A stretch of DNA of 64,000 nt from a bacterium (GTDB lineage Bacteria > Patescibacteriota > Minisyncoccia > Minisyncoccales > CG1-02-41-26): NCBI GenBank assembly GCA_043802745.1, contig JAZDKU010000015.1, forward strand, positions 1,358 to 65,357, read 5' to 3'. The translations under genes and the position numbers were made by a program. Shown here one piece after another: positions 10,549 to 59,505 of the stretch; positions within the stretch are counted from its first letter, which is position 1, and each line of letters opens with the position of its first letter. The notes beneath the pieces are model-generated. The model searched no databases and was not told the DNA's origin. It was given only the letters and a program-made list of their open reading frames with translations.

Positions 10549-11454
10549 TTATTTGATATCCAGACCTCGTAAAGCAGATACTCTTTCTTCAACAGGAGGG
10601 TGAGTTAAGAATAACTTGGTTAACCAGTTGCCTGCTCGTTTGCCTTTAAACGGAGAATAAATAAATAAATGGGCAGTGGAGTTGTTGGCTTTTCTCATTG
10701 GGCTTGGGTCGCTTGCAATTTTTTCTAAAGCGCTGGCTAACCCCTCGGGGTATCTTGTTAAAAGCGCCCCCGAAGCATCCGCTAAAAACTCTCGCTTGCG
10801 AGAAATAGCCAATTGAATAAGAGTAGCGGCAATTGGCGCTAAAATAGCAGCCACCAAAGTTAAAACCAACATTATAGCTCCAATTTTTGAATCATCATTA
10901 TCTGAACGCAAACCCCCAAACATACTCATGCGCAAAAAGAAATCAGCCATTATAGCCACCACCCCAGCCAAAACCACAATCACGGTTTGTAGTAGCATAT
11001 CTTTATTTTTAATATGGCTTAATTCATGGGCGATAACTCCCTCAACCTCCACTTTATTTAATTTTTGCAACAAACCAGCTGTGACCACTACCACTGCGTG
11101 ATTATAATCCCGACCTGTGGCAAAAGCATTTGGCTGGGCTTCGGGCATGACATAAATTCTTGGCATAGGTAAACCACTAGCTATACAAAGATTTTCCACA
11201 ATATGAAAAAGCTCTCGATTGTCTGCTTCTTGGATTGGCTGGGACTTTGTCATGGCTAAAACTAATTTGTCGCTCCACCAATAACTACTAATGGAACTGA
11301 AAATGCTAAAAAACACAGCAAAATACAAAATGCCAGGGGCATTAAAATATCTTGATAATAACCAACCAAACCCAATTATCACAACCAAAAATACGGTTAT
11401 CAAAAACCAAGTTTTGCGAATATTTGAATCTGCTTGCGTGTATAAAGTAGACAT
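10549..11454 (-). CDS. htpX: HtpX-like M48 zinc metalloprotease
   Basis: HELSHIKNKD (HEXXH) zinc motif, N-terminal TM helices, typical HtpX length. Confidence 0.85.
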   Translation of the reverse strand: MSTLYTQADSNIRKTWFLITVFLVVIIGFGWLLSRYFNAPGILYFAVFFSIFSSISSYWWSDKLVLAMTKSQPIQEADNRELFHIVENLCIASGLPMPRIYVMPEAQPNAFATGRDYNHAVVVVTAGLLQKLNKVEVEGVIAHELSHIKNKDMLLQTVIVVLAGVVAIMADFFLRMSMFGGLRSDNDDSKIGAIMLVLTLVAAILAPIAATLIQLAISRKREFLADASGALLTRYPEGLASALEKIASDPSPMRKANNSTAHLFIYSPFKGKRAGNWLTKLFLTHPPVEERVSALRGLDIK

Positions 11455-11530
11455 AAAAAAGTGATTGAGTCATTGAGTGACTAAGTGATTAAATTACTTA
11501 ATCTCTTAATAACTTGATGACTAATTCTTA
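11449..11530. promoter_or_regulatory. 5' leader/promoter module of htpX; first 44 nt (including ATG TCT) identical to rsmI leader at 32351-32394
   Basis: agacataaaaaagtgattgagtcattgagtgactaagtgattaa identical at both loci; further ~40 nt diverged but homologous (cttaat..cttgatgact). Confidence 0.5.
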
Positions 11531-14536: not shown

Positions 14537-14575
14537 CAAAACCGCTCCGACAAGCTTGTCGGAGCGGTTTTGTTT
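14537..14575. terminator. bidirectional rho-independent terminator downstream of groEL
   Basis: aaaaccgctccgacaagcttgtcggagcggtttt: 11-bp perfect stem flanked by A-run and T-run. Confidence 0.8.
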
Positions 14576-14582
14576 TGCTTGA

Positions 14583-14608
14583 TTCCTAATTCCTAATTCT
14601 TAATTCTT
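14583..14608. repeat. tandem heptamer (TAATTCY)x4 just 3' of groEL stop
   Basis: ttcctaattcctaattcttaattcttg. Confidence 0.7.
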
Positions 14609-20364: not shown

Positions 20365-21252
20365 ATGGAGAGGTTTTTGAATAATTTTCCAATAGGACAG
20401 ATCGATATAAAAAATTCTTATTTTCCCAAGGCGTTGAGAAATTTAGCGGGAATGCCAGAGGTTTTATATTACAGGGGCAATATCAAAATTTTAAATGAAA
20501 AATGCTTTGCCATTGTGGGCACGAGAAAGCCAACAGATTATGGCAAATCAGTTGCTTTATCTTTTAGCAATGGGCTTGCTGAATCTGGACTAACAATTGT
20601 TTCTGGCCTGGCCTTGGGCATTGATAGCTTAGCTCACCAGTGCGCTATTGATAAAAATGCTTTAACCATAGCGGTTTTGGGCTCTGGTCTAGACGAGCCA
20701 TGCTTTTACCCTGCAGAAAACTTAAAATTAGCCAAACAAATTTTAGAAAAAAATGGCTGTTTAGTTTCAGAATATCCATCTGGCACAAAAGGCGCTCTCT
20801 ATACTTTCCCGCAAAGAAACCGTATAATAGCAGGGTTGTCACTTGGAGCCTTAGTGGTGGAAGCAAAAATAAAATCTGGTGCTTTGATTACAGCCAGCTA
20901 TGCCAAGCAATATAAAAAACCTGTTTTTGCCATACCAAATAGCATTTACACCCAAACTTCCAAGGGCTGTAATTTTTTAATAAAAAACGGAGCCAAGCTG
21001 GTTGAATCGCCAAATGAAATCCTAGAAGTCCTTGGTTTAAAACAAAAAATAGAAACACAAGACCTTTTTGGCACAAGCCAAGAAAAAATAATAGCTGAAG
21101 TTCTAAAAAACGGCCCCTTACACATTGACACTATAATTGAAAAAACAAAAATGCCATCTCAGGCAATATCTGGAATTATCTGTATAATGGAATTAGAAAA
21201 TAAAATTAAAAACCTAGGCGCAAACACATATGCAATCATTAATAATAGTTGA
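20365..21252 (+). CDS. dprA: DNA processing protein DprA (Smf)
   Basis: AIVGTRKPTDYGKSVALSFSNGLAESGLTIVSGLALGIDSLAHQ Rossmann-like DprA core. Confidence 0.9.
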   Translation: MERFLNNFPIGQIDIKNSYFPKALRNLAGMPEVLYYRGNIKILNEKCFAIVGTRKPTDYGKSVALSFSNGLAESGLTIVSGLALGIDSLAHQCAIDKNALTIAVLGSGLDEPCFYPAENLKLAKQILEKNGCLVSEYPSGTKGALYTFPQRNRIIAGLSLGALVVEAKIKSGALITASYAKQYKKPVFAIPNSIYTQTSKGCNFLIKNGAKLVESPNEILEVLGLKQKIETQDLFGTSQEKIIAEVLKNGPLHIDTIIEKTKMPSQAISGIICIMELENKIKNLGANTYAIINNS

Positions 21253-23380
21253 AAGCCCGACAAAGGCGAAAACCCTGCAAGGGTTTCTTGACAAAAATTA
21301 CAATGTTATCTCTTCTTTTGGTCATGTGAGAGATTTGCCAAAAAGTGTTTTGGGTGTGGATGTTGAAAAAAACTTTGAAGTGAAGTATATCGTGCCAATT
21401 AAAGCCAAACCAAAGGTGAAGATCTTAAAAGAAGAGGCTAAAAAATCTGATGAAATTATACTAGCAACCGACGAAGACCGCGAAGGAGAAGCAATTGCCT
21501 GGCACTTATCTGAAGTTTTAAAGCTAGAAAACCCAAAAAGAATTGCTTTTCACGAAATAACAAAAACAGCTATTGAAGAAGCGTTAAAAAACCCGCGAAA
21601 AATAGATATGAATTTAGTAAACGCCCAGCAATCAAGAAGAGTTTTGGACAGATTGGTTGGCTACAAGCTTTCTCCTTTTTTATGGAAAAAAATAATGCGA
21701 GGGTTGTCAGCGGGCCGAGTGCAGTCAGTGGCTATGCGCTTAATTTGCGCAAGAGAAGACGAAATCAAAAAATTTATCCCCCAAGAGTACTGGTCCATTG
21801 AGGCATTGCTTGACCGCTTCCGCCCCACCCCTCGGCCCCAAGCCGAGGAGTGGGGCGGTTTCCGAGCAAATTTGATTGGCGTTGAAATAAAAAACAAAGC
21901 TCAAGCTGATAAAATTTTGCAGGAATTAGATGGGGCGCAATACATTGTTGAAAGCATTGAGAAAAAAGAAACAATCAGAAACCCCCAAGCCCCCTTCACC
22001 ACCAGCACTCTCCAACAAACATCTTCAAGCAAGCTAGGCTATGGAGCAAAAAGAACCATGATGATTGCCCAAAAGCTTTATGAAAAAGGTCATATTACCT
22101 ATCATCGTACCGATTCCTTAAACCTAAATATGCAAAGCCAAGAAATAGCCAAGCAGTTTATAATTAACTCTTTTGGTGAAAAATATTGGCCAGGAGATTA
22201 TAGAAAGTTTAAAACAAAATCAAAATCAGCCCAAGAAGCCCATGAGGCCATCCGGCCAACTCATCCTGAAAACGATCCTGATAGCTTTAAAAAATCAGCT
22301 AAGCCAACCCCAGACGAATCAAAGCTTTACACTTTAATTTGGCAAAGATTTATAGCTAGTCAAATGAGCCAGGCTATTTTTGACACTTGCTCAATTGACA
22401 TAAAAGCCCATTCGGCAAGCTCAGGGCAGGCCCCTTCGAATTCCTCAGGACAGGCTTATACATTTAGGGCTAATGGCCAAACCTTAAAATTTGATGGGTT
22501 TTTGAAAGTTTATCCTGTTAAGTTTGAAGAAACAGATTTGCCCAACTTGGATAAGGGCGAAGTTCTTGAGTTAAAAGACTTACTCTCAAATCAACATTTT
22601 ACCCAACCCCCGGCCAGATATTCAGAAGCAACATTAATAAAAGTTTTAGAAAAAGAAGGCATTGGCCGACCATCAACATATGCCCCAACGCTAAGCACAA
22701 TTCAACAGAGAAACTACACCGAGAAAGACGAAAACAAAAAGCTAAAACCAACCCAAATTGGCATAATGGTTGACACGATGCTTTTAGCGAACTTTCCCCA
22801 GATTGTAGATATTCAATTTACTGCTAAAATGGAGAAAGAGTTCGATGAGGTAGCTAATGGAAAAGACACTTTTCAACAAACCTTAAAAGATTTTTATATG
22901 CCATTTGAAAAAATTTTAAAAGACAAAGAAAAAACCGTGGAAAAATTAGATCTCACAGAAAAAACCGATAAAATATGCCCAGAATGTAAAAACCCAATGG
23001 TGCTACGGATGGGCAGGTTTGGAAAGTTTTATGCGTGCAGTAAGTTTCCAGAGTGTAAACATACAGAGCCAATAAAAAAACCAACTCTTGGAATTGAGTG
23101 CCCAAAATGCGGTCTAGGTCAAATAACTGAAAAAACAACAAAAACCAAAAAAATATTTTACGGTTGCTCAAATTGGCCCAAGTGCGACTTTGCTTTATGG
23201 GATAAACCAGTTAATCAATTCTGCCCGGATTGCAAGTCTATAATGATAGAAACAAAACCTGCCCGCAATGCTTCCAGCATAGCTGATGCAGGCGGGAGTA
23301 AAGTAATAAAATGCCCAAGTAAAACCTGCCCATCAATTATCAATGCAAAAGAAAATAAAAAACTTAAAAAGGAAACTTAA
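21230..23380 (+). CDS. topA: DNA topoisomerase I
   Basis: MQSLIIVESPTKAKT..., TOPRIM, active-site Tyr region, C-terminal zinc ribbons (CPECKNPM.., CPKCG.., CPDCK..). Confidence 0.95.
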   Translation: MQSLIIVESPTKAKTLQGFLDKNYNVISSFGHVRDLPKSVLGVDVEKNFEVKYIVPIKAKPKVKILKEEAKKSDEIILATDEDREGEAIAWHLSEVLKLENPKRIAFHEITKTAIEEALKNPRKIDMNLVNAQQSRRVLDRLVGYKLSPFLWKKIMRGLSAGRVQSVAMRLICAREDEIKKFIPQEYWSIEALLDRFRPTPRPQAEEWGGFRANLIGVEIKNKAQADKILQELDGAQYIVESIEKKETIRNPQAPFTTSTLQQTSSSKLGYGAKRTMMIAQKLYEKGHITYHRTDSLNLNMQSQEIAKQFIINSFGEKYWPGDYRKFKTKSKSAQEAHEAIRPTHPENDPDSFKKSAKPTPDESKLYTLIWQRFIASQMSQAIFDTCSIDIKAHSASSGQAPSNSSGQAYTFRANGQTLKFDGFLKVYPVKFEETDLPNLDKGEVLELKDLLSNQHFTQPPARYSEATLIKVLEKEGIGRPSTYAPTLSTIQQRNYTEKDENKKLKPTQIGIMVDTMLLANFPQIVDIQFTAKMEKEFDEVANGKDTFQQTLKDFYMPFEKILKDKEKTVEKLDLTEKTDKICPECKNPMVLRMGRFGKFYACSKFPECKHTEPIKKPTLGIECPKCGLGQITEKTTKTKKIFYGCSNWPKCDFALWDKPVNQFCPDCKSIMIETKPARNASSIADAGGSKVIKCPSKTCPSIINAKENKKLKKET
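21820..21858. repeat. GC-rich near-palindromic element inserted in-frame in topA (encodes RPTPRPQAEEWGG)
   Basis: ccgccccacccctcggccccaagccgaggagtggggcgg; 35 nt identical to copy in metG (29873-29911). Confidence 0.85.
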
Positions 23381-25152: not shown

Positions 25153-25238
25153 GCCGAGGTGATGGAACTGGCTAGACATGTAGGTCTCAAAAACCTATGG
25201 CCGAAAGGCCGTGAGGGTTCGACTCCCTCTCTCGGCAC
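25153..25238 (+). tRNA. tRNA-Leu (anticodon CAA), type II
   Basis: Acceptor GCCGAGG/TCTCGGC, D-stem ATG/CAT, anticodon stem TAGGT/ACCTA loop CTCAAAA, variable arm GGCCGAAAGGCC, T-arm GAGGG TTCGACT CCCTC. Confidence 0.85.
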
Positions 25239-25255
25239 ATAAACAAAATAAAAAA

Positions 25256-25302
25256 GGGCAGACCTCCAAAAAACTTGAGCTCAGTTCTGGGGAGGTCTGC
25301 CC
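25256..25302. terminator. bidirectional terminator (gggcagacctcc ... ggaggtctgccc) between tRNA-Leu and convergent nucleotidyltransferase gene
   Basis: 12-bp perfect stem, A-run 5' and T-run 3'. Confidence 0.75.
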
Positions 25303-26055
25303 TTATTTATTTTGTTCGTTGAGGAAGTTTTCTACTTTGGCGATGTCGTCAGGGTTGCCAAAGTCTAGCCAATAATCCTCGAGCATTTTTACTTTTACTT
25401 TGCCCTCTTTTGCCAACAAAGTAACCGCGTCAGTTAACTCGTATTCTCCTCTTGGAGATAAACAAACTTGAGAAAGTTTTTCAAAAACTTCGGGCGTAAA
25501 CTTATAAATCCCCTTGTTAACCAAATTGCCAACATATTCTTTTGGCTTTTCTATAATCTCTTTTAAGTGGCCCTTGTCATCGATTATTAAAACCCCATAT
25601 TTTTCTGGATTTTCAGCCACAGAAGCGCCAATATAATTATAGACATCATCAATAGCCATTGATTTTAAATCGCGCACAGAAAATAAATTATCCCCATAAA
25701 TGGAAATAAAGCTTTCATTACCAACGAAATCTTTAATGCATTTCATTGGGCATAAAGTGCCATATTCTTTTTCTTTTGGGCCCAAAATCTTAAATTGATC
25801 AACCAGCTGGATTTTAATATCATTTTTATTATTACTAGAGCAATGCTCCAAATATTCCTTAGCAAACCTTTCCATTAATTCAGCAAAAAAGCCAACTACT
25901 AAGATAAAATCTTTGTAGCCAGCTTCAATTAAATTATCGAGCAAATAAGCCAAAAATGGCCTTTGCTTTACACAGATTAAGGACTTGGGCTTATCTTTGC
26001 AAAGCTCTTTCATCCTTGTGCCCTGGCCGGCTGCTGCAATAACAACTTTCATCAT
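25303..26055 (-). CDS. sugar-phosphate nucleotidyltransferase (NTP_transferase family)
   Basis: N-terminal AAGQGTRM (GxGTRx) motif. Confidence 0.75.
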   Translation of the reverse strand: MMKVVIAAAGQGTRMKELCKDKPKSLICVKQRPFLAYLLDNLIEAGYKDFILVVGFFAELMERFAKEYLEHCSSNNKNDIKIQLVDQFKILGPKEKEYGTLCPMKCIKDFVGNESFISIYGDNLFSVRDLKSMAIDDVYNYIGASVAENPEKYGVLIIDDKGHLKEIIEKPKEYVGNLVNKGIYKFTPEVFEKLSQVCLSPRGEYELTDAVTLLAKEGKVKVKMLEDYWLDFGNPDDIAKVENFLNEQNK

Positions 26056-26237: not shown

Positions 26238-28730
26238 TTATTGAAAATCTACTACGAAATTTATTAGTTTATTTTGCACGAAAACAACCTTTTTAATTGT
26301 TTGGCCTTTCAGCCATTTATTTATCTTTTCATCCTGTTTGGCAATTTCTAAAGCTTGCCCTTGACTTGCTTCTGCTTCAACTTCCACAACTCCTCTGGCT
26401 TTGCCATTGATTTGCACCACTATCTTCACCCTATCTTCAAAAAGCCACTCTTCTTCTGGTTTTGACCATTGTTCTAAAAATATACTATCATTATTTCCTA
26501 ACCGATGCCACAATTCCTCTGCTATATGGGGGGCAAACGGCGAAACAATAATCAAAAATCTTTCTAAATCTTTTTTAGACAGAAAACCTTCCTGCAAATC
26601 TTTTTGAGTCCACCATAATCCGATAAAACCCATCAAACAACTAATTGCCGTATTAAACTTCATTTGCTCAATGTCCTCTGAAACTTTTTTAATTCTCAAT
26701 TCAAGCGATACCTTCAGCTCTCTAAATTTTATTTCTTTGGGAAATTCTTTTGAAAGAGAGTCGTTAACCAACAACCATATTCTTTCTAAAAATTTTCGCG
26801 CACCAATTATAGCTTCTGTATTCCATGCGATTGCTTGGTCAAAGGGCCCCATAAACATTTCGTAAATTCTTAAAGTATCAGCTCCATATTCTTTCACAAT
26901 ATCATCAGGATTTATCACGTTGCCCTTACTCTTGCTCATTTTCACCCCCCCCTCCGCCAAAATTAACCCCACATTACGCAATTTTAAAAACGGCTCATCA
27001 AAACTAATTAAACCCTTTCTAAAAAGAGCTTTAGTAAAAAACCGAGCATATAAAAGATGCAAAACCGCATGCTCTGCTCCCCCCACATATAAATCTACTG
27101 GTAGCCAATATTTAATTTTTTCTAAGCCAGCAAACTCATTTTTATTTTGATAATCAAGATAACGAAAAAAATACCAAGACGAGCAAACAAAAGTGTCCAT
27201 TGTATCAGATTCTCGCTTTGCTTGTCCGCCGCATTGCGGGCATTTAACATTATGAAAATCCTTAGACTTTGTTAGGGGCGACTCGCCTGTTGGCACAAAA
27301 TCAACATCTGTTGGTAATAACACTGGCAAATCTTTTTCTAACACAGCTTGCTCCCCGCATTTGTCGCAATAAATAATAGGAATAGGGGCGCCCCAATATC
27401 TTTGCCTAGAAACCAGCCAATCCCGCATCCTATAATTTACTTTTTTCTCAGCTATTTTTTTACTAGCCAGCCACTGCCCAATACTTTCTATAGCTTCATT
27501 CGAGGCAATCCCATTAAATTGTTCTGAATTTGTTAAAATGCCTTCTTCTTCCCAACACTCTGCCTCTAATCTAACGCAATCCTTCTTACCCATAGCAAAA
27601 TCAACAGCATTAACTAAAGTAGCGCTCAACTCTGGTGGCAGAATAACCTTTGGACAGGGCAACCCATACTTTTTTGCAAACTCAAAGTCACGAGCGTCGT
27701 GAGCTGGCACAGCCATAATAGCGCCAGTGCCATAGCCAGACAAAACATAGTCAGCCACAAAAATCGGAATTTCTTTTCCATTGGCTGGGTTTATGGCCAT
27801 AATACCTTCTAGTTTTACACCTGTCTTATCCCTAACATCTGCCTGCCTATCTCTCTCGCTTTTTTTCTTTGCTACTTCAACATACTCTTTCACCTCCTTT
27901 AGATTTAAGATTTTAGATTTAAGATTTAAGATTATTTCATGTTCTGGAGCCACCACTAAATAAGTGCACCCGAATATAGTATCAATTCTTGTTGTGAACA
28001 CATTTATTTCAAATCTTGAATCATGAATCTTGAATCTTATTTCATGCCCAGTGCTTTTTCCAATCCAATTTTTTTGCATTATTTTAATTGGTTCTGGCCA
28101 ATCAATTTTGTCCAAGCCAGCCAAAAGCTCTTCGTTAAAATCCGTAATTTTAAAAAACCACTGCTCTAAATCTTTTTGGCTAACCTCGCTACTGCACCTT
28201 TCACACTTGCCATCTTGGGCTTGCTCATTAGCTAAAACTGTTTGGCAAGAATCGCACCAATTAACAGAGGCTTTGGCTTTATACGCCCAACCATTTTTAT
28301 AAAGAAAAAGAAAAAACCATTGTGTCCATTTGTAATATTCGGGACTTGAAGTGTCTATTTCTCTTTCCCAATCATAAGAAAATCCTAATGACTTAATTTG
28401 TTCTTTAAAATAAGCTATATTTTTGTGCGTGCTTTCGTTTGGGTGGACTTTAGTTTTAATAGCATAGTTTTCTGCTGGCAAGCCAAAAGCATCCCAACCA
28501 ATTGGATGGAGCACATTAAAACCGCTCATCCGCTTATATCGAGAAATAATATCAGTGGCTGTATATCCCTTTGGGTGGCCCACATGCAAACCAGCCCCGG
28601 AAGGATAGGGAAACATATCCAAACAATAAAACTTAGCTTTGTTGCCAAAATCCTCAGCCTTATTTAACCCTTGCTCTTCCCAAAACTTTTGCCATTTGGA
28701 TTCAATTTTATCTGGCTCGTAATTATTCAT
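26238..28730 (-). CDS. leuS: leucyl-tRNA synthetase
   Basis: HVGHPKGY (HIGH), KMSKSKGN, CP1 editing domain. Confidence 0.95.
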   Translation of the reverse strand: MNNYEPDKIESKWQKFWEEQGLNKAEDFGNKAKFYCLDMFPYPSGAGLHVGHPKGYTATDIISRYKRMSGFNVLHPIGWDAFGLPAENYAIKTKVHPNESTHKNIAYFKEQIKSLGFSYDWEREIDTSSPEYYKWTQWFFLFLYKNGWAYKAKASVNWCDSCQTVLANEQAQDGKCERCSSEVSQKDLEQWFFKITDFNEELLAGLDKIDWPEPIKIMQKNWIGKSTGHEIRFKIHDSRFEINVFTTRIDTIFGCTYLVVAPEHEIILNLKSKILNLKEVKEYVEVAKKKSERDRQADVRDKTGVKLEGIMAINPANGKEIPIFVADYVLSGYGTGAIMAVPAHDARDFEFAKKYGLPCPKVILPPELSATLVNAVDFAMGKKDCVRLEAECWEEEGILTNSEQFNGIASNEAIESIGQWLASKKIAEKKVNYRMRDWLVSRQRYWGAPIPIIYCDKCGEQAVLEKDLPVLLPTDVDFVPTGESPLTKSKDFHNVKCPQCGGQAKRESDTMDTFVCSSWYFFRYLDYQNKNEFAGLEKIKYWLPVDLYVGGAEHAVLHLLYARFFTKALFRKGLISFDEPFLKLRNVGLILAEGGVKMSKSKGNVINPDDIVKEYGADTLRIYEMFMGPFDQAIAWNTEAIIGARKFLERIWLLVNDSLSKEFPKEIKFRELKVSLELRIKKVSEDIEQMKFNTAISCLMGFIGLWWTQKDLQEGFLSKKDLERFLIIVSPFAPHIAEELWHRLGNNDSIFLEQWSKPEEEWLFEDRVKIVVQINGKARGVVEVEAEASQGQALEIAKQDEKINKWLKGQTIKKVVFVQNKLINFVVDFQ
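27901..27935. repeat. in-frame (AGATTTA)x5 heptamer array in leuS ending ...atttcatg
   Basis: Encodes HEIILNLKSKILNLKE. Confidence 0.8.
28012..28039. repeat. in-frame (AATCTTG)x4 heptamer array in leuS ending ...atttcatg
   Basis: Encodes HEIRFKIHDSRFEI; paralogous to the array at 27901. Confidence 0.8.
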
Positions 28731-29568
28731 AGTTCAATTTAAACAAATTTTTAGCGTTTTGGGTAGTGGTTTGAGCAATTTTCTCCAAACTTTCGCCTCT
28801 TATTTCGGCAATTTTTTGAGCAATGTATTTTACAAAAATCGGTTCATCGCGATCTTGCTGGCCGCCTTCGCCTTGCGGGCTAAGGCGTGCAGAAGGCGGG
28901 CAAAGAAACGGGCAATCTGTTTCCAAAAGCATTCTTTCCAGAGGCATTTTTTTAATTGTTTCTGCTAAATCCATTTTGAAAATAATTCCATTAAAGCCTA
29001 AATAAAAGCCGAGCCCCATATACTGTTGTGCCTCCTCCCAGCTCCCTGTAAAACAATGCACTACACCCCTCCCCCCTCCTAATTCATAATTCTTAATTCT
29101 TAATTCTTCTAGCAGGTCTTGATGGGCTTTTCGGCAATGTAGGATTACAGGCAAATTTAATTCTTTTGCCAAATCTAATTGTTTTAAAAAAACTTGTTTT
29201 TGCTTGTCTTTAAAAATTCTGGCCTTTTCTTTTCCTTTTGGCTCGTTCCAATAATCCAAACCAATTTCTCCTATAGCCACCACTCCCTTTTCTTTGGCTA
29301 ACTCTCTGTATTTTTCAATATCTAATTCTTCTAGTCTATCCTCGTCTAATTGACTTAAGTCAATAACGCAATTGATTGGATGCAAGCCAACAGAAGCAAA
29401 AACACCCTCTTTATGTTGTTGGGCTATTTTCACGGCTAATTGCGAGGTTTTATAGTTTGAGGAAGCGTTTATTATCCAAGTATCTTGCTCTAGGCTTTTT
29501 TTTATAACCTCATCCCTGTCCTCGTCAAACGCCTTAAAATTCAAATGGCTGTGGGTATCAATTAGCAT
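28723..29568 (-). CDS. tatD: TatD-family metal-dependent hydrolase/DNase
   Basis: MLIDTHSHLNF..., conserved His/Glu/Asp metal ligands. Confidence 0.85.
   Translation of the reverse strand: MLIDTHSHLNFKAFDEDRDEVIKKSLEQDTWIINASSNYKTSQLAVKIAQQHKEGVFASVGLHPINCVIDLSQLDEDRLEELDIEKYRELAKEKGVVAIGEIGLDYWNEPKGKEKARIFKDKQKQVFLKQLDLAKELNLPVILHCRKAHQDLLEELRIKNYELGGGRGVVHCFTGSWEEAQQYMGLGFYLGFNGIIFKMDLAETIKKMPLERMLLETDCPFLCPPSARLSPQGEGGQQDRDEPIFVKYIAQKIAEIRGESLEKIAQTTTQNAKNLFKLNYE
29078..29108. repeat. 31-nt element cctaattcataattcttaattcttaattctt in-frame in tatD (encodes ELRIKNYELG); identical copy in ileS at 43119-43149
   Basis: Exact identity seen in sequence. Confidence 0.85.
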
Positions 29569-29569
29569 A

Positions 29570-31015
29570 TTAGGCTAGTCTTGGAAACAAAGGTTCGCTT
29601 TTGTTGGTTTTTATTTGTTCTAAAATTTTCTCTGAAGTTTGGGGCATAAAGGGCGCAAGCATCTCAGCGATGCTACAAATAACAAATAACAAATAACAAA
29701 TAACTTTTTCATTTTTAGTTTTTAGTTTTTCATTTCCTTCTTCCCATGGCTTTTCTGTGGCCATTATTTTATCGCAAACCCCGATCAACTCCCAAACAGC
29801 TCCCAAGGCCTCGTCAATTTTTAAATCTTTAAGCGCTATATTGTACTTATCTTTTGCCTGTTTCACCTCGCTTCCGCCCCACTCCTCGGCTTGGGGCCGA
29901 GGGGTGGGACGTAGTGCCTTGTATTTACTTGCAAGAGTTACAACTCTAGCAACCAAATTACCAAGGCCGCTAGCCAAGTCTGAATTATATTTTTCATCCA
30001 AGCGAACAAGCGAAACATCTCCGTCATTGCCAAAGGGAAATTGGGTTAAAAGTAAATACCTAGTAGCATCAACACCATATTTGTCTATTAAATCATTGGG
30101 GTCAACCACATTGCCGATTGTTTTGGACATTTTTTGGCCATCAATAGTGAAATAACCATGGCAAAAAACCTGTTTTGGCAACTGGTCAACAGCGTCTTCG
30201 CCATAATAAGCTAGCAACAAGGCTGGCCACATAATACAATGAAATTTTAGAATATCACGGCCGACTAATTGCAAGTCCATTGGCCAAAATTCAGTTTTGC
30301 CTAAATTCTGCAGAGCAGTCCAATAATTAAGCAAAGCGTCTACCCACACATAAATTGTCTGGCTTTCCTCCCATGGCAACTTAATGCCCCAAGAAACGCT
30401 TTTACGAGAAATAGAAATATCGTCAAGCCCCTGCTTTATCACGCCCAAAACCTCGCTTTTAGCATTTTCTGGCATTATTAAAATTTTATCTTGTTCTATT
30501 AGTTCTTGAATCTTTGGCAATAATTGCCTTAACTTAAAAAACCAATTCTCTTCAGCCACGTCTTGGGGCTCACATTTATGGTCTGGGCATTTGCCCTCAA
30601 CCAGATCTTTATCAGTCACAAACTTTTCACAACCCACACAATACTTGCCCGCATACTCGCCCTCATAAACAAAACCATTATTTTTTAATACTGTTAAAAA
30701 TTCCTGCACTTTTTCCTCGTGCGGTTTGTCCGTGGTGCGAATAAAGTATGAGTAGTCAATGTTTAAATTTTCCCAAGCTTTTTTAAATAAATCTGAAACT
30801 TCATCGCAAAATTCTTTTGGGGTTTTGTTGGCTTTTTGGCTAGCTTCAAAAATTTTAGCCCCATGCTCATCAGTGCCTGTTAGGAAAAAGACCTCTTTAC
30901 CGCCTATCTTATGATAGCGAGTCAAAACATCAACTGCCAAAGTAGTATAGGCATGGCCCAGATGTGGGCGTGAGTTCACATAATATATTGGGGTGGTTAA
31001 GTAAATTTTATTCAT
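29570..31015 (-). CDS. metG: methionyl-tRNA synthetase
   Basis: PIYYVNSRPHLGHAYTT (HIGH region), KMSKT, zinc-knuckle CVGCEKF..CPDHKC. Confidence 0.95.
   Translation of the reverse strand: MNKIYLTTPIYYVNSRPHLGHAYTTLAVDVLTRYHKIGGKEVFFLTGTDEHGAKIFEASQKANKTPKEFCDEVSDLFKKAWENLNIDYSYFIRTTDKPHEEKVQEFLTVLKNNGFVYEGEYAGKYCVGCEKFVTDKDLVEGKCPDHKCEPQDVAEENWFFKLRQLLPKIQELIEQDKILIMPENAKSEVLGVIKQGLDDISISRKSVSWGIKLPWEESQTIYVWVDALLNYWTALQNLGKTEFWPMDLQLVGRDILKFHCIMWPALLLAYYGEDAVDQLPKQVFCHGYFTIDGQKMSKTIGNVVDPNDLIDKYGVDATRYLLLTQFPFGNDGDVSLVRLDEKYNSDLASGLGNLVARVVTLASKYKALRPTPRPQAEEWGGSEVKQAKDKYNIALKDLKIDEALGAVWELIGVCDKIMATEKPWEEGNEKLKTKNEKVICYLLFVICSIAEMLAPFMPQTSEKILEQIKTNKSEPLFPRLA
29674..29732. repeat. adjacent in-frame heptamer arrays (CAAATAA)x4 and (TTTTTAG/TTTTTCA)x4 in metG C-terminal region
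   Basis: Encodes KLKTKNEKVICYLLFVICSI. Confidence 0.75.
29873..29911. repeat. GC-rich near-palindromic element in-frame in metG (encodes RPTPRPQAEEWGG), same coding orientation as topA copy
   Basis: rc reads cgtcccacccctcggccccaagccgaggagtggggcgg. Confidence 0.85.
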
Positions 31016-31657: not shown

Positions 31658-32356
31658 TTATGCGCTAATTTTATTAACTGCTACGACGAATTCTCCTTTT
31701 AGGGGGGATTTTTTTATTGCTTCAATAACTTCGTTGAGAGAGCCGCGGTAGATGGTTTCAAACTTTTTAGTTAGTTCTCTACCCACCACTATTTGCGTTT
31801 TATCTTCTATTCCTGATTCCTGAACCATAAATCCTAATTCATTGAGCGTCTTTATGATGCGATAAGGAGATTCAAAAAATATCACTGAGTGCTTTGAGTT
31901 TATAATTTCTTCAAAAAATTGCTTTCTTTTTTTCTTAATTGGCGGAAAGCCTAGAAACAAAAACTTGTCCATAGGAAACCCGCAAACACTAGCTATAGCT
32001 GTTAATGCCGACGGTCCGGGAATTGGCTCTATTCTAACTTTATCACTCAATGACTTAATGACTTCCCCAACAAGCTGACTGCCTGGGTCAGATATTCCCG
32101 GCGTGCCAGCATCTGAAATTAAAGCTAGATTTTTCCCGTCTTGTAACAAACCTAAAATATAATCAACCTTATCTAACTTAGAATGCTGATGATAAGAAAT
32201 CATTGGCTTTTTAATGCCAAAACGAGTGAGCATTTTTTGGCTCACCCGCGTGTCTTCACATAAAATATAATCAACAGATTTTAAGGTATCCAAGACCCTT
32301 TGGGAAATATCGCTTAAATTCCCAATAGGCGTTCCCACCACATACAAAACAGACAT
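31658..32356 (-). CDS. rsmI: 16S rRNA (cytidine1402-2'-O)-methyltransferase RsmI
   Basis: MSVLYVVGTPIGNLSDIS..., tetrapyrrole-methylase fold. Confidence 0.85.
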   Translation of the reverse strand: MSVLYVVGTPIGNLSDISQRVLDTLKSVDYILCEDTRVSQKMLTRFGIKKPMISYHQHSKLDKVDYILGLLQDGKNLALISDAGTPGISDPGSQLVGEVIKSLSDKVRIEPIPGPSALTAIASVCGFPMDKFLFLGFPPIKKKRKQFFEEIINSKHSVIFFESPYRIIKTLNELGFMVQESGIEDKTQIVVGRELTKKFETIYRGSLNEVIEAIKKSPLKGEFVVAVNKISA

Positions 32357-32430
32357 AAAAAAGTGATTGAGTCATTGAGTGACTAAGTGATTAAGCTTCT
32401 TAATCACTTGATGACTTGATGACTTAGTGA
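32351..32430. promoter_or_regulatory. 5' leader/promoter module of rsmI, 44 nt identical to htpX leader
   Basis: See 11449-11530. Confidence 0.5.
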
Positions 32431-33474
32431 CTACCCCTCAGCTTGTTCTGGTAACTCGTGCCTTTGGCGTTTTAATAAATAATCTTTAACAATTTCAAAA
32501 ACCACCCCAGCCAAAGGAATACCAAGTATTGCCCCAGCCGCCCCCCATAACTCCCCGCCAATAGCAAAGGCCACCAACACCAAAACAGGAGACAAACCAA
32601 TAAGTTTTTTAAATATAATAGGAAATAAAATATGGTTTTCTATTTGCTGAATAATAAAGAAGGCTAAAATCACAAAAACTGCCTGGGGAAAAGAAATTAA
32701 AGAAACAACCGAGAATAAAGCAACCCCAGCCACCAATGGCCCGATAAACGGTAGCAAATCCAACACCCCAGCAATAAGGGCTAAAATAAAAGCATACTTT
32801 ACATTTAAAATCATTAAAATAACATACATACCCACCCCAACAAAAGCAATGCCAATCAAGCGGGTAACAAACCAGCCGCTTACTTTCTTTTTTGAGCGCC
32901 TCCACAAGCCAAATAAGTATTCTTTGTATTGGGGGGGTGAAAAAGCGCTAAGAATCTTTTCCACAAAATGCCGCTCTAAAGATATAAAAAATGCCATGGC
33001 CACCACCAGAGCTGTTGAGGCTGCCCCGCCAAAAATACTGGCCAACGCATTGGTAAAGCTCCCCCCAGCGCTGCTTAAGCTTGTTTGCAGGCTACCCATA
33101 AAAACCTTGCTGTTTTTGAAAGAAGTAATCCCCAATTTTTCGAAAAACGGCGAGATCTTTTTTAAGTAAGCTGGCAAATTAGCCACAAACTCTTGAATTT
33201 CATAAAGTAAAATAGGGGCTGTTTTATAAATAAAAAACCCAAGCAAAGCAAAAAACCCAAGGTATAAAACACTGGTAGAAACAATGCGAGGCACCTTTCT
33301 TTTTTGCAAGCCATCAATAGCAAAATTAAACAAAATAGAAATAACCAAGGCAAAAATAAACCAAATAATAATATCTTTCAATATATACAAGACATACAAA
33401 CCCACCACCAAAAGCGTGAGCTTGGCAGCTGATTGCCAATCTAAATGCAAATTGTAAATTTCTTTTTCTTTCAT
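32431..33474 (-). CDS. AI-2E family transporter (PerM/UPF0118 permease)
   Basis: ~8 TM, 347 aa, conserved C-terminal GIPLAGVVF region. Confidence 0.7.
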   Translation of the reverse strand: MKEKEIYNLHLDWQSAAKLTLLVVGLYVLYILKDIIIWFIFALVISILFNFAIDGLQKRKVPRIVSTSVLYLGFFALLGFFIYKTAPILLYEIQEFVANLPAYLKKISPFFEKLGITSFKNSKVFMGSLQTSLSSAGGSFTNALASIFGGAASTALVVAMAFFISLERHFVEKILSAFSPPQYKEYLFGLWRRSKKKVSGWFVTRLIGIAFVGVGMYVILMILNVKYAFILALIAGVLDLLPFIGPLVAGVALFSVVSLISFPQAVFVILAFFIIQQIENHILFPIIFKKLIGLSPVLVLVAFAIGGELWGAAGAILGIPLAGVVFEIVKDYLLKRQRHELPEQAEG

Positions 33475-42752: not shown

Positions 42753-45673
42753 ATTACTTTCCCATCTATTTTAAATTCTGACTGGGCTAAGAATTCTCCT
42801 TCTTTATTTTTGTTTTCTTTTATTTCTTTTGAGCGAGTGGTTGATAAAATTTCGGCTTTGTTTTTATCAAAAATTTTCTCTAAACTCTTTTCAGCAGAGT
42901 AACTAATAACAATATTTGTGTCGTTTGGCGTTAGCCCGGCTTGTTTGCGCAAGCTTTGGATATTTCTAATAATTTCCCGCACTGTGCCCTCTTCTTTTAA
43001 CTCCTCGGTCATAGTAGTGTCCAGCTCAACCCCACCAGTAATATCATCGCTAAACAAAACCTCTTTAACATTGACCTCATCTTTAATTAATTCCAAAAAT
43101 TCTTTTTTCCCCTTTATTCCTAATTCATAATTCTTAATTCTTAATTCTTTTAAGGCTTGTCTCACCCCAATACCAAGCTCGGCTCTTTTGGCCAAAACCA
43201 AAGAAACAACATCCCTAACCTCCTGCATATCTTTTTCTAATTTTTCATCAATAAGTTTCTTATCCACTTTAGGCCAATCGCACAGATGAACCGACCGAGG
43301 GCAGCCCTCGGGGTAGCACCCCGAGGGCTGCCCTCGGGACACTAACTGCTGATAAATATCTTCAGCTAAAAATGGCATAAAAGGAGTGGTAAGTTTGGCA
43401 ATAGTTATTAAAACATCATAAAAAGTTTGCTCTGCTTCTTGAAATCTTTTGCGCGATCTTCGCACATACCAAAGCGACAAATCATTAATCCAAAAATTTT
43501 CAATAGCCAACGTGGCTTTCATTACGTCAAATTTATCTAAGCTATCTGTTGCCTCTTTTATTAAATTATTTAATTTTGAAATTATCCATCTATCTAAAAC
43601 ATTCTTGATTCTTGATTCTTGATTCTTGATTCTTGATTCTGACGCGTATGTTAAAAAGAAGGTTACGCAATTTGTTAAAGTTAAGATTTTTCTTTCAGTT
43701 TCTTTGGCCACATTATAGCCAAACCTCATATTGTTGGCTGGATTTTGTACCACATACATCCATCTCATCACGTCAGCTCCGATTTTTTCTACTGCCTCGT
43801 CAAACCAAATAGCATTGCCTTTTGACTTGTGCATTTCCTCGCCCTTTTCATCCACTACTGAAGCAAACCCTAATAAATTCTTAAACGGCATTTCATTTTC
43901 CAAAACTTGGCTCATCACCAACAAAACATAAAACCAATTTTTAAATTGACCGGGAAAACTCTCGCACACTAAATCAGCTGGGAACCATTTGTCCCACTCT
44001 CCTTTATTATTATGAAAATAGCCGGGAATGGTTGAAAATGGCACAATACCCGCATCCAGCCATGGAGTACCAACATCTAAAATTCTTGGCACAACTTCAC
44101 TGCACTTTGAGCATTTTATCTTTACTGAATCAATCCAAGGCCGATGAAGTGAATTTCCCTCGAATTCTTTCCAACCCTCCACTGCCCTTTCTTTTAATTC
44201 TCCCATTGAGCCAATAACATCAAAATTTTTACACTTAGAGCATTCATAAATCGGCAGGGCCAAACCCCAATATCTTTTTTTAGATATTAGCCAATCGCGC
44301 ATATTCAGGAGCCAATCAAGCTCTCTTTCTAAGCAAAAACCAGGAACCCAGTTTATTTTTCTGGCAATAGTCATTAGTGGTGCTTTTAGATAATCCATAG
44401 CAATATACCACTCATCAACCAAGCGAAAAATTAACTCACTTTTACATCTCCAGCAAGTTGGATACCTGTGTTTATAATCTTCTATTTTATAAACTAAGTT
44501 ATTGGTTTTTAATCTTTCAAAAATAAGCTCACGAACAAACTCTTCGCCCACAAAATGCCCGGTTAAAGCATCAAAGCCTTCGGCGTATTTACTTTCATCG
44601 TTAGTTGGATTAACAACTGGCAAGCCTTGTTCTTTCCCTAAAGCAAAATCTTCCTGGCCACACCCTGGGGCAGAGTGCACAACTCCAGTGCCCTCTTCTT
44701 GCGTTACATCTTTCCATAAAATAACTTTGTGCTCATAACTTTTTAAAGCCTCCCTTACAGCGGGCAATTCATCAAAAAGCCCAGTATATCTCTTGCCTTC
44801 AAGCGCCCTACCTTCAAATACTTCCAAAATTTGACCATTTTCAATTAAACTAGCTTTGTCTTTTAATAAGATATAAATTTCGCCAGTTTTTGGGTCAGCT
44901 ACTTTAGCATAAATCAAATCCGGATGAACTGATAAAAAAACATTGGCCACTAATGTCCATGGAGTGGTTGTCCAGGCTAAAAAATATGTTTCATTTTCGC
45001 CCATAACTGGCAGTTTAAAATAAATAGCCTTATGGGTTATTTCTTTATATTCCTCAGTTAAAATTTCGTGCTGGGAAATAGCAGTGCCACATCTCGGACA
45101 CCAAGGCACCACATCATGGCCTTTGTATAAAAGCCCTTTTTCTTTACACCTCTTCAGGAAATGCCAAATAGCGTAATTATTTTCTGGGGACATTGTGTAA
45201 TACGAATGGCTTTGCTCCATCCACTCGCCTTTTTCATCAAAATCTGTTTGCCAGTTGCCCCAATCCCGCAACATGCCCAATCTTATGGACTGCTCGGTTT
45301 GGATTTTTGAATATTTATGCACCCGCTCCTTACATTTGTTGACAAAATTAGCAATGCCGTATCTTTCAATGTCCTTTTTGTTGCGAAAGCCAAGTTCTTT
45401 TTCCACTTCTACTTCCACCCAAAGCCCTTGGCAATCAAAACCATTTTGGAAGCGCTCGCTATAGCCTTGCATGGCCCTATACCGCTGAAATAAGTCTTTG
45501 TAAGTCCTGCCCCAAGCATGATGAACGCCCATGGGGTTATTAGCAGTTATCGGACCATCTAAAAAACTCCAAGGCTTTCCTTTTTTATTTTTCTCTTTCA
45601 GTTTTTCTAAAAGTTTTATATCCTCCCAAAACTTTAAAGTTTCCTTTTCTTTTTTTACAAAATCATTTTCCAT
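42728..45673 (-). CDS. ileS: isoleucyl-tRNA synthetase
   Basis: HIGH-region (PITANNPMGVHHAWGRTYKD), KMSKSKGN, CP1 editing domain, 981 aa. Confidence 0.95.
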   Translation of the reverse strand: MENDFVKKEKETLKFWEDIKLLEKLKEKNKKGKPWSFLDGPITANNPMGVHHAWGRTYKDLFQRYRAMQGYSERFQNGFDCQGLWVEVEVEKELGFRNKKDIERYGIANFVNKCKERVHKYSKIQTEQSIRLGMLRDWGNWQTDFDEKGEWMEQSHSYYTMSPENNYAIWHFLKRCKEKGLLYKGHDVVPWCPRCGTAISQHEILTEEYKEITHKAIYFKLPVMGENETYFLAWTTTPWTLVANVFLSVHPDLIYAKVADPKTGEIYILLKDKASLIENGQILEVFEGRALEGKRYTGLFDELPAVREALKSYEHKVILWKDVTQEEGTGVVHSAPGCGQEDFALGKEQGLPVVNPTNDESKYAEGFDALTGHFVGEEFVRELIFERLKTNNLVYKIEDYKHRYPTCWRCKSELIFRLVDEWYIAMDYLKAPLMTIARKINWVPGFCLERELDWLLNMRDWLISKKRYWGLALPIYECSKCKNFDVIGSMGELKERAVEGWKEFEGNSLHRPWIDSVKIKCSKCSEVVPRILDVGTPWLDAGIVPFSTIPGYFHNNKGEWDKWFPADLVCESFPGQFKNWFYVLLVMSQVLENEMPFKNLLGFASVVDEKGEEMHKSKGNAIWFDEAVEKIGADVMRWMYVVQNPANNMRFGYNVAKETERKILTLTNCVTFFLTYASESRIKNQESRIKNVLDRWIISKLNNLIKEATDSLDKFDVMKATLAIENFWINDLSLWYVRRSRKRFQEAEQTFYDVLITIAKLTTPFMPFLAEDIYQQLVSRGQPSGCYPEGCPRSVHLCDWPKVDKKLIDEKLEKDMQEVRDVVSLVLAKRAELGIGVRQALKELRIKNYELGIKGKKEFLELIKDEVNVKEVLFSDDITGGVELDTTMTEELKEEGTVREIIRNIQSLRKQAGLTPNDTNIVISYSAEKSLEKIFDKNKAEILSTTRSKEIKENKNKEGEFLAQSEFKIDGKVIWLALCLY
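43119..43149. repeat. 31-nt element identical to tatD copy, in-frame in ileS (ELRIKNYELG)
   Basis: cctaattcataattcttaattcttaattctt. Confidence 0.85.
43295..43337. repeat. 43-nt GC-rich perfect palindrome (20-bp arms, 3-nt loop; each arm itself a hairpin) in-frame in ileS
   Basis: ccgagggcagccctcggggt-agc-accccgagggctgccctcgg; encodes SRGQPSGCYPEGCPRSV. Confidence 0.85.
43603..43642. repeat. in-frame (TTGATTC)x6 heptamer array in ileS (encodes ESRIKNQESRIKN)
   Basis: Seen in sequence. Confidence 0.8.
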
Positions 45674-47639: not shown

Positions 47640-49292
47640 TTACATTTTAGTAGGGGATTCGATGCCTAGGATAGTTAGGCTGTTTTTTATTACGTAGCCA
47701 ACAGCGGACGTTAAGGCCAAGCGGAATTGTTTTTGTTCTTTGGTGTCTGCTTTTAAAATTGAAATTTCATTATAAAACAAATTAAAGCTTTGCGATAAGT
47801 CAAAAGCATAATTGCAAATAAGATTAGGTGAAAAAGTAACAACAGCCTGCTCAATTATTTCTTGAAAATGTAAAAGCTTTTTCAAGAGTATTTTCTCAAT
47901 TTCCTGCAAGCCACTAAAATCAATTTTGGTAATTTTGACAGTAGTCGGGCTACCGTTATATTTTTCCAAAACGCTTTGGGTACGAGCAAAAGCATATTGC
48001 AAATATGGCCCGGAATTGCCCTTTAAGTTTAAAATTTTATCCCAGTCAAAAACAATATCTCTTGAATGGTGCTGGCTTAAATCATTGTATTTAACCGCCC
48101 CAATGCCAACTTGTTTGGCTAGCTCTTTGTTTTTTTCACCAGAAAGATCTTCGGCTTTGTCGATAGCCTCTTGCAAAACATCTTCTAGGTGCACGGTATC
48201 GCCTCGCCGAGTTGAAAACTTGCCAGTCTTACTGCGCATCAAACCGTGGACAATATGCTCAAATTTCACATCTTGAATCCAACCAAGTAAATCAACTGTT
48301 TTAAATAACTGCTTAAAATAAAGCGACTGGTCAACTCCAACCTCGTAGGCAATAATATTGGGCTTCCATTTTTCTAATCTGTATTTAATAGTGGCCAAGT
48401 CTCTTAAAAAATAAGTAGTGGCACCATCGGATTTCATCAGCACCAAACCTGGAAAAACATTATTTTCAAATTCCACTACCCAAGCGCCCTCGCTCTGCTT
48501 TGTTAAATTTTTCTTTTTCATTTCTTCAAAAATACTTTGCATTTTATCTAAATAAAAACTTTCGCCCAAAGCATTATCAATTTTAACACCAAGCAAATTA
48601 TAAATTCTATCAAACTCTTTTAAAGAAATTTCCTTGCAAGCCTGCCAAATTTCTTTAGCTTTTTTATCACCGTCTTCTAATTTTTTAAACCAAGCCCGAG
48701 CCTCGTCATTCAGAGCTGGGTTTATTTCTGCCTCTTTATGAAACTCTACATAAAGCTGTTCTAATTTTTCTATATTTAACTCCCCAATTCTTAATTCTTG
48801 ATTCTTAATTCCTAATTCTATTTTATAAATCAGTTTCCCGAATTGTGTGCCCCAATCTCCCAAATGGTTATCGCCAATAGTTTTATAGCCCAAAAATTTA
48901 TATAAATTATAAATCGCTTGGCCAATAATCGTGGAGCGCAAGTGGCCAATGCCAAATGGCTTGGCAATATTTGGACCAGAATAATCAATAACAATAGTTT
49001 TGCCATGGCCGACTTGCGAGGAGCCGTATTTCTCTTTTTGTTTTAAAATCTGCTTTAAATTTTCCAAAAAATACTCTGGCTTTAAGAAAAAATTTATAAA
49101 CCCATTGACAACTTCTACTTTTTCGAATAAAGGGCTTGCTTTTAATTTATCAGCAATTTCTTGGCTGTTTAACTTTTCTTTAATTGCCACATTAGTAGAA
49201 AAATCTCCAAAACTAAAATTATCCGGCATATCCACCACCGCTTTTTTATTGATTGTCTTTTCAATTAAATTTTCTATCTCTTGTTTTAACAT
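47640..49292 (-). CDS. argS: arginyl-tRNA synthetase
   Basis: PNIAKPFGIGHLRS (HIGH-like), C-terminal DALR anticodon-binding domain. Confidence 0.9.
   Translation of the reverse strand: MLKQEIENLIEKTINKKAVVDMPDNFSFGDFSTNVAIKEKLNSQEIADKLKASPLFEKVEVVNGFINFFLKPEYFLENLKQILKQKEKYGSSQVGHGKTIVIDYSGPNIAKPFGIGHLRSTIIGQAIYNLYKFLGYKTIGDNHLGDWGTQFGKLIYKIELGIKNQELRIGELNIEKLEQLYVEFHKEAEINPALNDEARAWFKKLEDGDKKAKEIWQACKEISLKEFDRIYNLLGVKIDNALGESFYLDKMQSIFEEMKKKNLTKQSEGAWVVEFENNVFPGLVLMKSDGATTYFLRDLATIKYRLEKWKPNIIAYEVGVDQSLYFKQLFKTVDLLGWIQDVKFEHIVHGLMRSKTGKFSTRRGDTVHLEDVLQEAIDKAEDLSGEKNKELAKQVGIGAVKYNDLSQHHSRDIVFDWDKILNLKGNSGPYLQYAFARTQSVLEKYNGSPTTVKITKIDFSGLQEIEKILLKKLLHFQEIIEQAVVTFSPNLICNYAFDLSQSFNLFYNEISILKADTKEQKQFRLALTSAVGYVIKNSLTILGIESPTKM
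48786..48820. repeat. in-frame (TAATTCT)x5 heptamer array in argS
   Basis: caattcttaattcttgattcttaattcctaattct encodes KNQELRIGELN. Confidence 0.8.
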
Positions 49293-50103: not shown

Positions 50104-50161
50104 GCGGGCCCGCCCGCATCGCTACGCGAGCAAGCTCGCTTGCGAAGCGTTGCGGGCGGGG
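50104..50161. repeat. GC-rich hairpin (cccgcccgca ... tgcgggcggg) abutting tmRNA 5' end
   Basis: 10-bp stem enclosing GC-rich loop; terminator of GIY-YIG gene or member of GC-palindrome family. Confidence 0.5.
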
Positions 50162-51724: not shown

Positions 51725-51740
51725 AAATTATAATTAAAAG

Positions 51741-51777
51741 CTCCCCGGCCCATCCGCCAACTGGCGGAGCCAGGGAG
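51741..51777 (+). terminator. rho-independent terminator of infC-rpmI-rplT operon
   Basis: ctccccggcccatccgccaactggcggagccagggag followed by tttt; core ccgccaactggcgg recurs at 59521-59540. Confidence 0.7.
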
Positions 51778-51822
51778 TTTTAGTTTAAGTTATTTAGTAA
51801 ATTTAAAAGTTGCCAAAATTTA

Positions 51823-59481: not shown

Positions 59482-59505
59482 ATTTTTTAAAAAATTATTC
59501 CCACA

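Follow-up and report, generated by a model that had tools for sequence, protein, structure and literature searches.

Within a 64,000-nt stretch of contig JAZDKU010000015.1 (GenBank assembly GCA_043802745.1), referred to in its entirety as the window, a GC-rich and imperfectly palindromic repeat was found in frame in two unrelated housekeeping genes, topA and metG. The repeat, designated family A, forms a hairpin, is lineage-specific at both sites, and recurs in other genomes and in intergenic spacers. With a probability of roughly 0.6, family A represents small, non-autonomous dispersed repeats resembling the repetitive extragenic palindromes (REPs) and the Rickettsia palindromic elements (RPEs), residing in spacers as well as in essential genes of an AT-rich clade of Patescibacteria. 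The source of the sequence is a metagenome-assembled genome, and the methionyl-tRNA synthetase (MetRS) of the window is identical to an NCBI protein from such a genome. The host belongs to the candidate phyla radiation (CPR) and is AT-rich; its closest relatives, with 77-82% identity in MetRS, are labelled Pacebacteria or Patescibacteria. The two copies and their host genes are located as follows:

21230-23380, + strand: host gene topA, type IA DNA topoisomerase I, 716 aa (PDB 6ozw, E 3e-148; 'type I DNA topoisomerase' in the source annotation)
21821-21859, + strand: family-A palindromic repeat copy 1, 39 nt, 13 codons, TopA residues 198-210, RPTPRPQAEEWGG
29570-31015, - strand: host gene metG, methionyl-tRNA synthetase, 481 aa (PDB 2csx, E 6e-117)
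29873-29911, - strand: family-A palindromic repeat copy 2, 39 nt in metG, MetRS residues 369-381, RPTPRPQAEEWGG

A preliminary description of this DNA, made from the sequence alone, had reported a 35-nt repeat shared by topA and metG, 37 of 38 nucleotides being identical if the flanks were included, with the same orientation, frame and peptide in both genes. These statements proved exact at both sites. The 35-mer CCCACCCCTCGGCCCCAAGCCGAGGAGTGGGGCGG occurs without mismatch at 21824-21858 (+ strand, topA) and 29874-29908 (- strand, metG), and the identity of 37/38 applies to 21821-21858 versus 29874-29911. Orientation and frame relative to the gene are equal for the two copies, and both encode RPTPRPQAEEWGG; relative to each other, they are inverted and lie 8 kb apart. 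No third match with up to three mismatches is contained in the window, and none was obtained in 100 dinucleotide-preserving shuffles of the window, the chance expectation being none. The GC content of the element, given before as about 80% in an AT-rich genome, is indeed 0.77-0.79, compared with 0.375 for the window overall and 0.34-0.41 in 2-kb windows.

Secondary structure predictions for the sense RNA revealed a hairpin in either copy, each with a loop of 5 nt and a single C·A mismatch, consisting of 16 pairs in topA (-35.9 kcal/mol, z -7.3) and 15 pairs in metG (-30.8 kcal/mol, z -5.4). No shuffle matched the fold stability of either hairpin. An imperfect hairpin was therefore correctly recognized in the preliminary description, but its length of 14 bp has to be revised to 15-16 pairs. 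A strict scan of the window for GC-rich hairpins, requiring at least 10 pairs and allowing at most one mismatch, yielded three, all within genes, and none in ten shuffles.

For comparison of the two insertion sites and of other hairpins, syntenic DNA of the following relatives was used:

L009: GCA_030648255.1, syntenic relative locus
L010: GCA_964948515.1, syntenic relative locus
L093, L094: ENA / JGI metagenome contigs, syntenic relative loci
L095: GCA_028718785.1, syntenic relative locus
L096: ENA metagenome contig, syntenic relative locus
L098, L099: JGI metagenome contigs, syntenic relative loci

A search of genome contigs with the MetRS alignment was not used for the analysis of empty sites; the best among the matches listed was 49% identical. 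The assumption that the repeat is lineage-specific was confirmed by aligning orthologues, as syntenic relatives with about 80% identity lack the segment. An ancestral protein segment was ruled out for the same reason. TopA of L095, 84% identical overall, contains the short loop EYWTL-EAKLFKDKEFLS-NLI, and here the window protein reads EYWSI-EALLDRF-RPTPRPQAEEWGG-FRA-NLI, which makes it longer by 11 residues net. In L009 and L010, the unrelated AT-rich KLKTENEKLKNN is found at the family-A site, adding nine residues compared to L095, and the window TopA is just two residues longer than these proteins. Because of the short loop in L095 and the other insert in L009 and L010, the GC-rich TopA segment is taken to be derived and specific to this lineage, the site having been hit independently in sister lineages. 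In two aligned solved TopA chains, the site falls into a variable stretch that is a few residues shorter.

The family-A peptide is also absent from MetRS of seven relatives whose proteins are 77-82% identical. According to the MetRS alignment, the metG site belongs to the anticodon-binding domain and falls into a hypervariable segment that connects two helices. In an AlphaFold2 model, residues 369-381 (pLDDT about 53) are located in a coil (365-380) that follows helix 336-364 and precedes helix 381-396. The loop location proposed earlier was thus supported for both proteins, by the predicted coil for MetRS and by the alignment for the variable stretch of TopA. Insertions of exactly 13 residues, as proposed, were not found. 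In substance they are insertions within loops, but the gain in TopA is 11 or two residues depending on the relative, and the metG loop of the window is just one residue longer than that of L093, since 13 element residues were gained and 12 residues present just downstream in L093 are missing. Other hairpins occupy the same metG loop in relatives. The GC-rich hairpin of L009 differs from that of the window and, compared with L093, is a clean insert of 36 nt; it is found at exactly the codon boundary used by the window element, directly 5' of an AGY serine codon. In L098, a third, unrelated imperfect hairpin is present. With unrelated hairpins in the window, L009 and L098, this loop qualifies as a hot spot.

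To what extent family A occurs elsewhere was determined by pattern searches. The loose outer-stem pattern CCCCACYCCTC..GAGGRGTGGGG gave eight matches in viral contigs, mostly unrelated hairpins of GC-rich phages, and for this reason a stricter pattern, CCCACYCCTCGGC-N3-12-GCCGAGGRGTGGG, was applied to large collections. Two JGI metagenome contigs, L011 and L012, were matched. In L011 (38.5% GC), an 18-bp stem version with a different loop is located in the intergenic region between a murE-like gene and recA; L012 contains the same stem, its loop being the reverse complement. Within the window, two intergenic hairpins are connected to the family:

59506-59555, no strand assigned: intergenic hairpin, -49 kcal/mol, with the 11-nt outer stem CCCCACYCCTC/GAGGRGTGGGG of family A and the same C·A mismatch
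51737-51781, no strand assigned: intergenic hairpin between convergent rplT (+) and an unnamed open reading frame (ORF; -), flanked by an A-run and a T-run, core TCCGCCAACTGGCGGA

The two genes flanking the hairpin at 59506 are located on the - strand and encode a methyltransferase and a large protein with a pilin domain. It had been called a terminator sharing the core of the repeat. The shared 11-nt outer stem was verified, but the designation as terminator was not, since a T-tract is missing. Its inner 16 nt (59522-59537) are identical to 51753-51768, the core TCCGCCAACTGGCGGA of the 51737 hairpin, so that the spacer hairpins have a mosaic structure. All five family-A members keep the C·A mismatch, with a G·U pair on the other strand, which argues for common descent over convergence. 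From these comparisons, family A is real yet rare in public data.

Additional hairpins in the window and its relatives indicated that family A does not stand alone. Three of those in the window are the following:

23258-23296, + strand: second GC-rich in-frame insert in topA, clean 39 nt (PARNASSIADAGG), imperfect palindrome, without counterpart in L009, L010 and L095 at a conserved site
43293-43337, - strand: perfect 20-bp GC-rich palindrome in frame in ileS, most of SRGQPSGCYPEGCPRS, net +9 aa compared to L010, -48.5 kcal/mol, z -7.5
50105-50165, + strand: intergenic family-F-like hairpin, -43 kcal/mol, abutting the 5' end of the tmRNA gene (50158-50523)

A second family, F, with the consensus CCAGYCCGCATCGCTACGC..GCGTTGCTGGCGGG, is likewise found in coding and intergenic positions. 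The hairpin at 50105-50165, which ends in GCGGGCGGGG and thereby overlaps the first bases of the tmRNA gene, has CCGCATCGCTACGC and AAGCGTTGC.GGCGG in common with two other sequences, the in-frame insert in L009 metG and an intergenic copy of L096. The L009 insert is 94% identical to the L096 copy and has blocks of 14-18 nt in common with 50105-50165. The ends of the 23258-23296 insert, CCTGCCCGCA...TGCAGGCGGG, resemble family F as well, and it folds weakly (z -2.0). L096 contains a 53-nt element twice, once within the ftsJ coding sequence (637-1371) and once in a spacer (2701-2810) 1.7 kb away, the copies being 96% identical, and 18 nt of the spacer hairpin following tRNA-Leu in the window (25242-25316) equal part of an in-frame ftsJ hairpin of L093. 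Own in-frame hairpins were detected in rsmI, ftsJ and a PrmC-like methyltransferase gene of relatives, and the same loops of metG, rsmI, ftsJ and the methyltransferase gene contain different hairpins in different relatives. The recurrence at the same loops and the preservation of the frame are evident from the alignments. In all of about 13 in-frame cases (window, L009, L010, L093, L095, L096), the downstream frame and the conserved sequence are intact, and three out of four mapped insertion points are located directly 5' of AGY.

Some further features of these loci were recorded. A window-specific GC-rich in-frame insert of 42 nt in topA (22412-22453) consists of a 12-nt direct repeat, CTCAGGGCAGGC / CTCAGGACAGGC, and reads SSGQA twice; L009 and L010 lack it, and the site is occupied by a different and shorter insert in L095. 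In ftsJ of L096, the 53-nt element is included in a 44-residue insert with tandem GCCHPEQ units, and its spacer copy directly adjoins a family-F hairpin. The sequence 25242-25316, located between tRNA-Leu (25153-25238) and a convergent gene, is a 34-nt inverted repeat with 88% complementarity. A stretch of 57 nt is 100% identical in L009 (5274-5330), L093 (6297-6353) and L094 (455-511), with diverged flanking genes. It is part of a 40-residue, partly hairpin-forming insert in the PrmC-like methyltransferase, and the identity suggests strong constraint or recent exchange.

A number of observations weigh against the interpretation of family A as a dispersed repeat. Its copy number is low, with two full copies and one partial copy in 64 kb and the two JGI contigs mentioned above, and the strict pattern had no match in one genome each of 185,579 species. 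On these counts, proliferation of the repeat is not supported. A profile search of 1.84 billion representative proteins with the family-A peptide was also negative, although such a search undercounts because close relatives share cluster representatives. Peptide searches with a six-frame concatenate and with a padded profile gave no hit at E <= 10; a local test reached 40 bits on the window's own proteins, and neither search was informative. No target-site duplication was seen at the metG copy, the 23258 insert or the L009 metG insert; the topA copy is flanked by TTCCG on both sides. Pfam scans of 48 ORFs, nearly all main ORFs of the window, revealed no transposase domain, including that of REP-associated tyrosine transposases (RAYT). 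An unpaired tag is not conserved within the family. CGTC is located ahead of the stem in just one out of five members, the metG copy (A-CGTC-CCACC), the topA copy has CGCC at the tag position, and L011, L012 and the 59506 hairpin have neither GTAG nor CGTC. Furthermore, the metG copy is not a net insertion, loop sequence having been replaced and the loop being practically as long as in relatives, and the ileS palindrome may have arisen in place by inverted duplication. Finally, about 20 kb were compared per relative, and in this sample most hairpin inserts are singletons.

Part of this evidence could also be obtained if a single hairpin, residing in topA, metG or an unseen donor, had been copied once by ectopic gene conversion or templated repair via microhomology, with no propensity to spread. 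Just two identical copies are seen, inverted and separated by 8 kb, public data contain the element very rarely, and the metG copy replaces loop sequence and does not add to it. Moreover, the topA copy has CGCTTCCG on its left side, the metG copy has the reverse complement, CGGAAGCG, on its right side, and CGCTTC is native topA sequence in relatives. Such a singular event does not account for the presence of this stem, including its mismatch, in spacers and in two further genomes, for other hairpin families that are both coding and intergenic across genomes, or for different hairpins recurring at the same loops. It is considered unlikely, but clearly ahead of the explanations that follow below.

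Hairpins could also be made in place, by template switching or inverted duplication at fragile loop-coding sites, and the identity between topA and metG would then be coincidental or secondary. The ileS palindrome fits this idea. One of its arms embeds the native-like CCCGAGG(G)C, where L010 has CCCGAGGCG, and the arms themselves are palindromes; with native-like sequence inside the palindrome, a mobile source is not needed for every hairpin insert. The singletons among the hairpin inserts of several relatives point in the same direction. For family A, an independent origin of the copies is ruled out because of the exact identity over 35 nt and the near-identical stems elsewhere. Overall, formation in place is regarded as very improbable.

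The stability and conservation of the hairpins might reflect selection for a structure acting in cis, such as a processing site for RNase III or another enzyme, or a site of translational pausing or protein binding; control of both genes by a single factor would then explain why the copies have stayed identical. With z values of -5 to -7, the hairpins are very stable, all five members share the C·A mismatch, and the strand bearing it is the transcribed sense strand in four of them. The 57-nt hairpin insert, identical between L009 and L093/L094 despite diverged genes, may be counted here as well. This explanation is nevertheless judged improbable. Close relatives are devoid of the element or have unrelated sequence at both sites, and the genes hosting such hairpins vary between genomes. 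The identical stems offer no covariation to examine. No terminator signature and no Rfam family were detected; with Rfam 15 at gathering threshold, the window yielded the tmRNA and two tRNAs only and no match to the hairpins, and an Rfam RNA was dropped as a candidate.

An artefact of assembly or binning has to be considered for any metagenome-assembled genome, the kind of source used here. It is extremely improbable in this case. Both copies are in frame within intact conserved genes, TopA and MetRS are each found under two NCBI accessions, and analogous in-frame hairpins occur in independent assemblies of relatives. A repeat of 35 nt is below the typical k-mer size of assemblers, which was also counted against an artefact.

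Several other candidates were rejected. Intrinsic terminators were ruled out, as no terminator-like site was called at 21600-22100 or 59300-59700, and neither the coding copies nor the 59506 hairpin have an adjacent T-tract. A CRISPR repeat does not agree with two copies 8 kb apart, each in a gene and without an array. The features of miniature inverted-repeat transposable elements, or MITEs, which derive from DDE transposons, namely terminal inverted repeats together with a target-site duplication, were not found either; the whole element is one palindrome and there is no consistent target-site duplication. Densities of DNA uptake sequences (DUS) and uptake signal sequences (USS) are far above the density of this element, and the idea of a DNA-uptake sequence was dropped. 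Translational bypass or excision was likewise dropped, since the frame is kept in all cases, although this is not proof.

If family A is a dispersed repeat as favoured here, a copy would be pasted into a new site without target-site duplication, either by an enzymatic process recognizing hairpins or single-stranded DNA or by templated repair. Most insertions into genes would be lethal, and survivors would be those adding a multiple of three bases to a permissive surface loop. The ribosome would read through the element, which would become part of the protein. All six frames of family A are free of stop codons, and Pro, Gly, Ala and Arg make up 56-66% of the encoded residues; because of these properties it could be tolerated in loops. 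The intact downstream frame in all cases argues for read-through, short of proof. Mobility, mode of copying, translation of the segment and neutrality or selfishness are thus inferred properties of the family. The hot spots may equally be due to target preference or to survivorship, which are not separated by the present data.

A more far-reaching version of this idea is that an active and hitherto undescribed class of GC-rich hairpin elements spreads in this CPR clade by a mechanism specific for hairpins or single strands and homes repeatedly to the same few loop sites of essential genes (metG, topA, rsmI, ftsJ, ileS). Located in essential genes, such elements would escape removal through deletion, and each lineage would have its proteins remodelled continually. 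At present, this version is regarded as unlikely.

The remainder of the window consists of housekeeping genes throughout, among them those for several aminoacyl-tRNA synthetases, GroEL/ES, UvrA, GyrA, RelA, DprA, SmpB together with tmRNA, IF3 and L20, and also encodes giant proteins with pilin-like domains. Two adjacent genes (55219-59481 and 54722-55222) specify a C-terminal type IV secretion pilin domain, one of the proteins having about 1420 residues, and a direct repeat of 175 nt with 72% identity (54744-54918, 55241-55415) is located just upstream. AT-rich tandem repeats with a period of 7-8 nt (TTCTTGA / TTCTTAAT) are present in the ileS coding sequence (43602-43641, 43103-43142), where they translate as ESRIKNQESRIKN and ELRIKNYELGIK. 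The same type was detected at 14569-14608, 29069-29108 and 48767-48827, including spacers, and similar low-complexity inserts rich in K, N and E occur in topA and metG loops of relatives. An intergenic array of about 80 nt, made of 8-nt units (GTGATTGA / GTCATTGA / GTGACTAA ...), is found twice (11441-11527 and 32343-32432) with 89% identity, the part at 32362-32432 being itself palindromic. In leuS (27465-27593), a LeuRS segment of 43 residues (MGKKDCVRLEAECWEEEG...) is not present in the L009 and L010 orthologues; it is neither GC-rich nor a hairpin.

Mobile DNA is considered scarce in the tiny genomes of CPR bacteria. If confirmed genome-wide, family A would extend the occurrence of selfish DNA within protein-coding genes, for which Rickettsia has so far been the best-known case, to the CPR. 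It would account for some of the loop insertions by which CPR housekeeping proteins differ between lineages, and such inserts could serve as strain-typing markers. Unrelated hairpins at one codon boundary in different lineages would provide a natural test of target-site preference versus survival in permissive loops. In addition, if CPR marker proteins contain inserts of this type, alignment trimming, phylogenomics and homology modelling can be led astray. In agreement with the preliminary description, no account of such elements in CPR/Patescibacteria was found in full-text literature searches.

Comparisons with known systems gave a mixed picture. Family A resembles intrinsic terminators in its GC-rich stem-loop and in the intergenic location of the 51737 and 59506 hairpins, but differs from them by the missing T-tract at the coding copies and at 59506. 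In composition and context, the nearest analogy is provided by the GC clusters of yeast mitochondria, which are short GC-rich palindromes that have spread to hundreds of copies through a very AT-rich genome. They occupy spacers and, occasionally, an in-frame position within a protein gene (var1). They are organellar and unrelated in sequence, so the likeness is one of behaviour only.

Among bacterial repeats, the tagged REPs form the GTAG and CGTC super-families, which include RPE-4 and RPE-6 of R. conorii (Di Nocera et al. 2013, PMC3733652). They are imperfect palindromes of 20-40 bp, with a 4-5-nt loop in the CGTC type, and are mostly extragenic, some being located in genes, often of replication or repair; family A is similar in these respects. 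CGTC REPs also have no dedicated transposase and no target duplication. Their stems comprise 8-9 bp compared with 14-16 bp here. The conserved GTAG or CGTC tag is not shared either, CGTC being present in one out of five members, and the RAYT (a Y1 HUH transposase) of GTAG REPs was not found in the 48 scanned ORFs of the window. REPs are characterized by high copy number and dimer organisation (PMC3733652), whereas family A is known from two copies and one partial copy in the window. The phyla given in the part of PMC3733652 consulted do not include Patescibacteria. Membership of family A in the tagged-REP families is therefore not supported.

RPEs were first described as elements of about 150 bp, and R. 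conorii contains 44 insertions in genes (Ogata et al. 2000, summarized in PMC10969869). Intragenic REPs and RPEs are documented, many of them in replication and repair genes (PMC3733652; PMC10969869). RPEs agree with family A in several ways, as palindromic repeats are found in frame in unrelated housekeeping genes of a reduced, AT-rich genome, copies are present in non-coding DNA too, each family encodes a conserved peptide, insertions fit the protein fold, and no transposase is known (PMC10969869). In the window, one repeat family was likewise in frame in unrelated genes, topA and metG, at fold-compatible positions. Differences concern the size of 35-39 nt with about 78% GC compared with roughly 100-150 bp, the phylum, and two gene copies seen compared with 44 (PMC10969869). 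The RPE-like behaviour put forward in the preliminary description is thus retained with respect to in-frame and spacer dispersal and to the other hairpins in housekeeping genes of the clade, but membership in an RPE family is not. Family A is placed outside the described RPE families on the basis of size class and lineage, not of sequence comparison, and constitutes a new lineage and a new sequence family for a kind of element already known.

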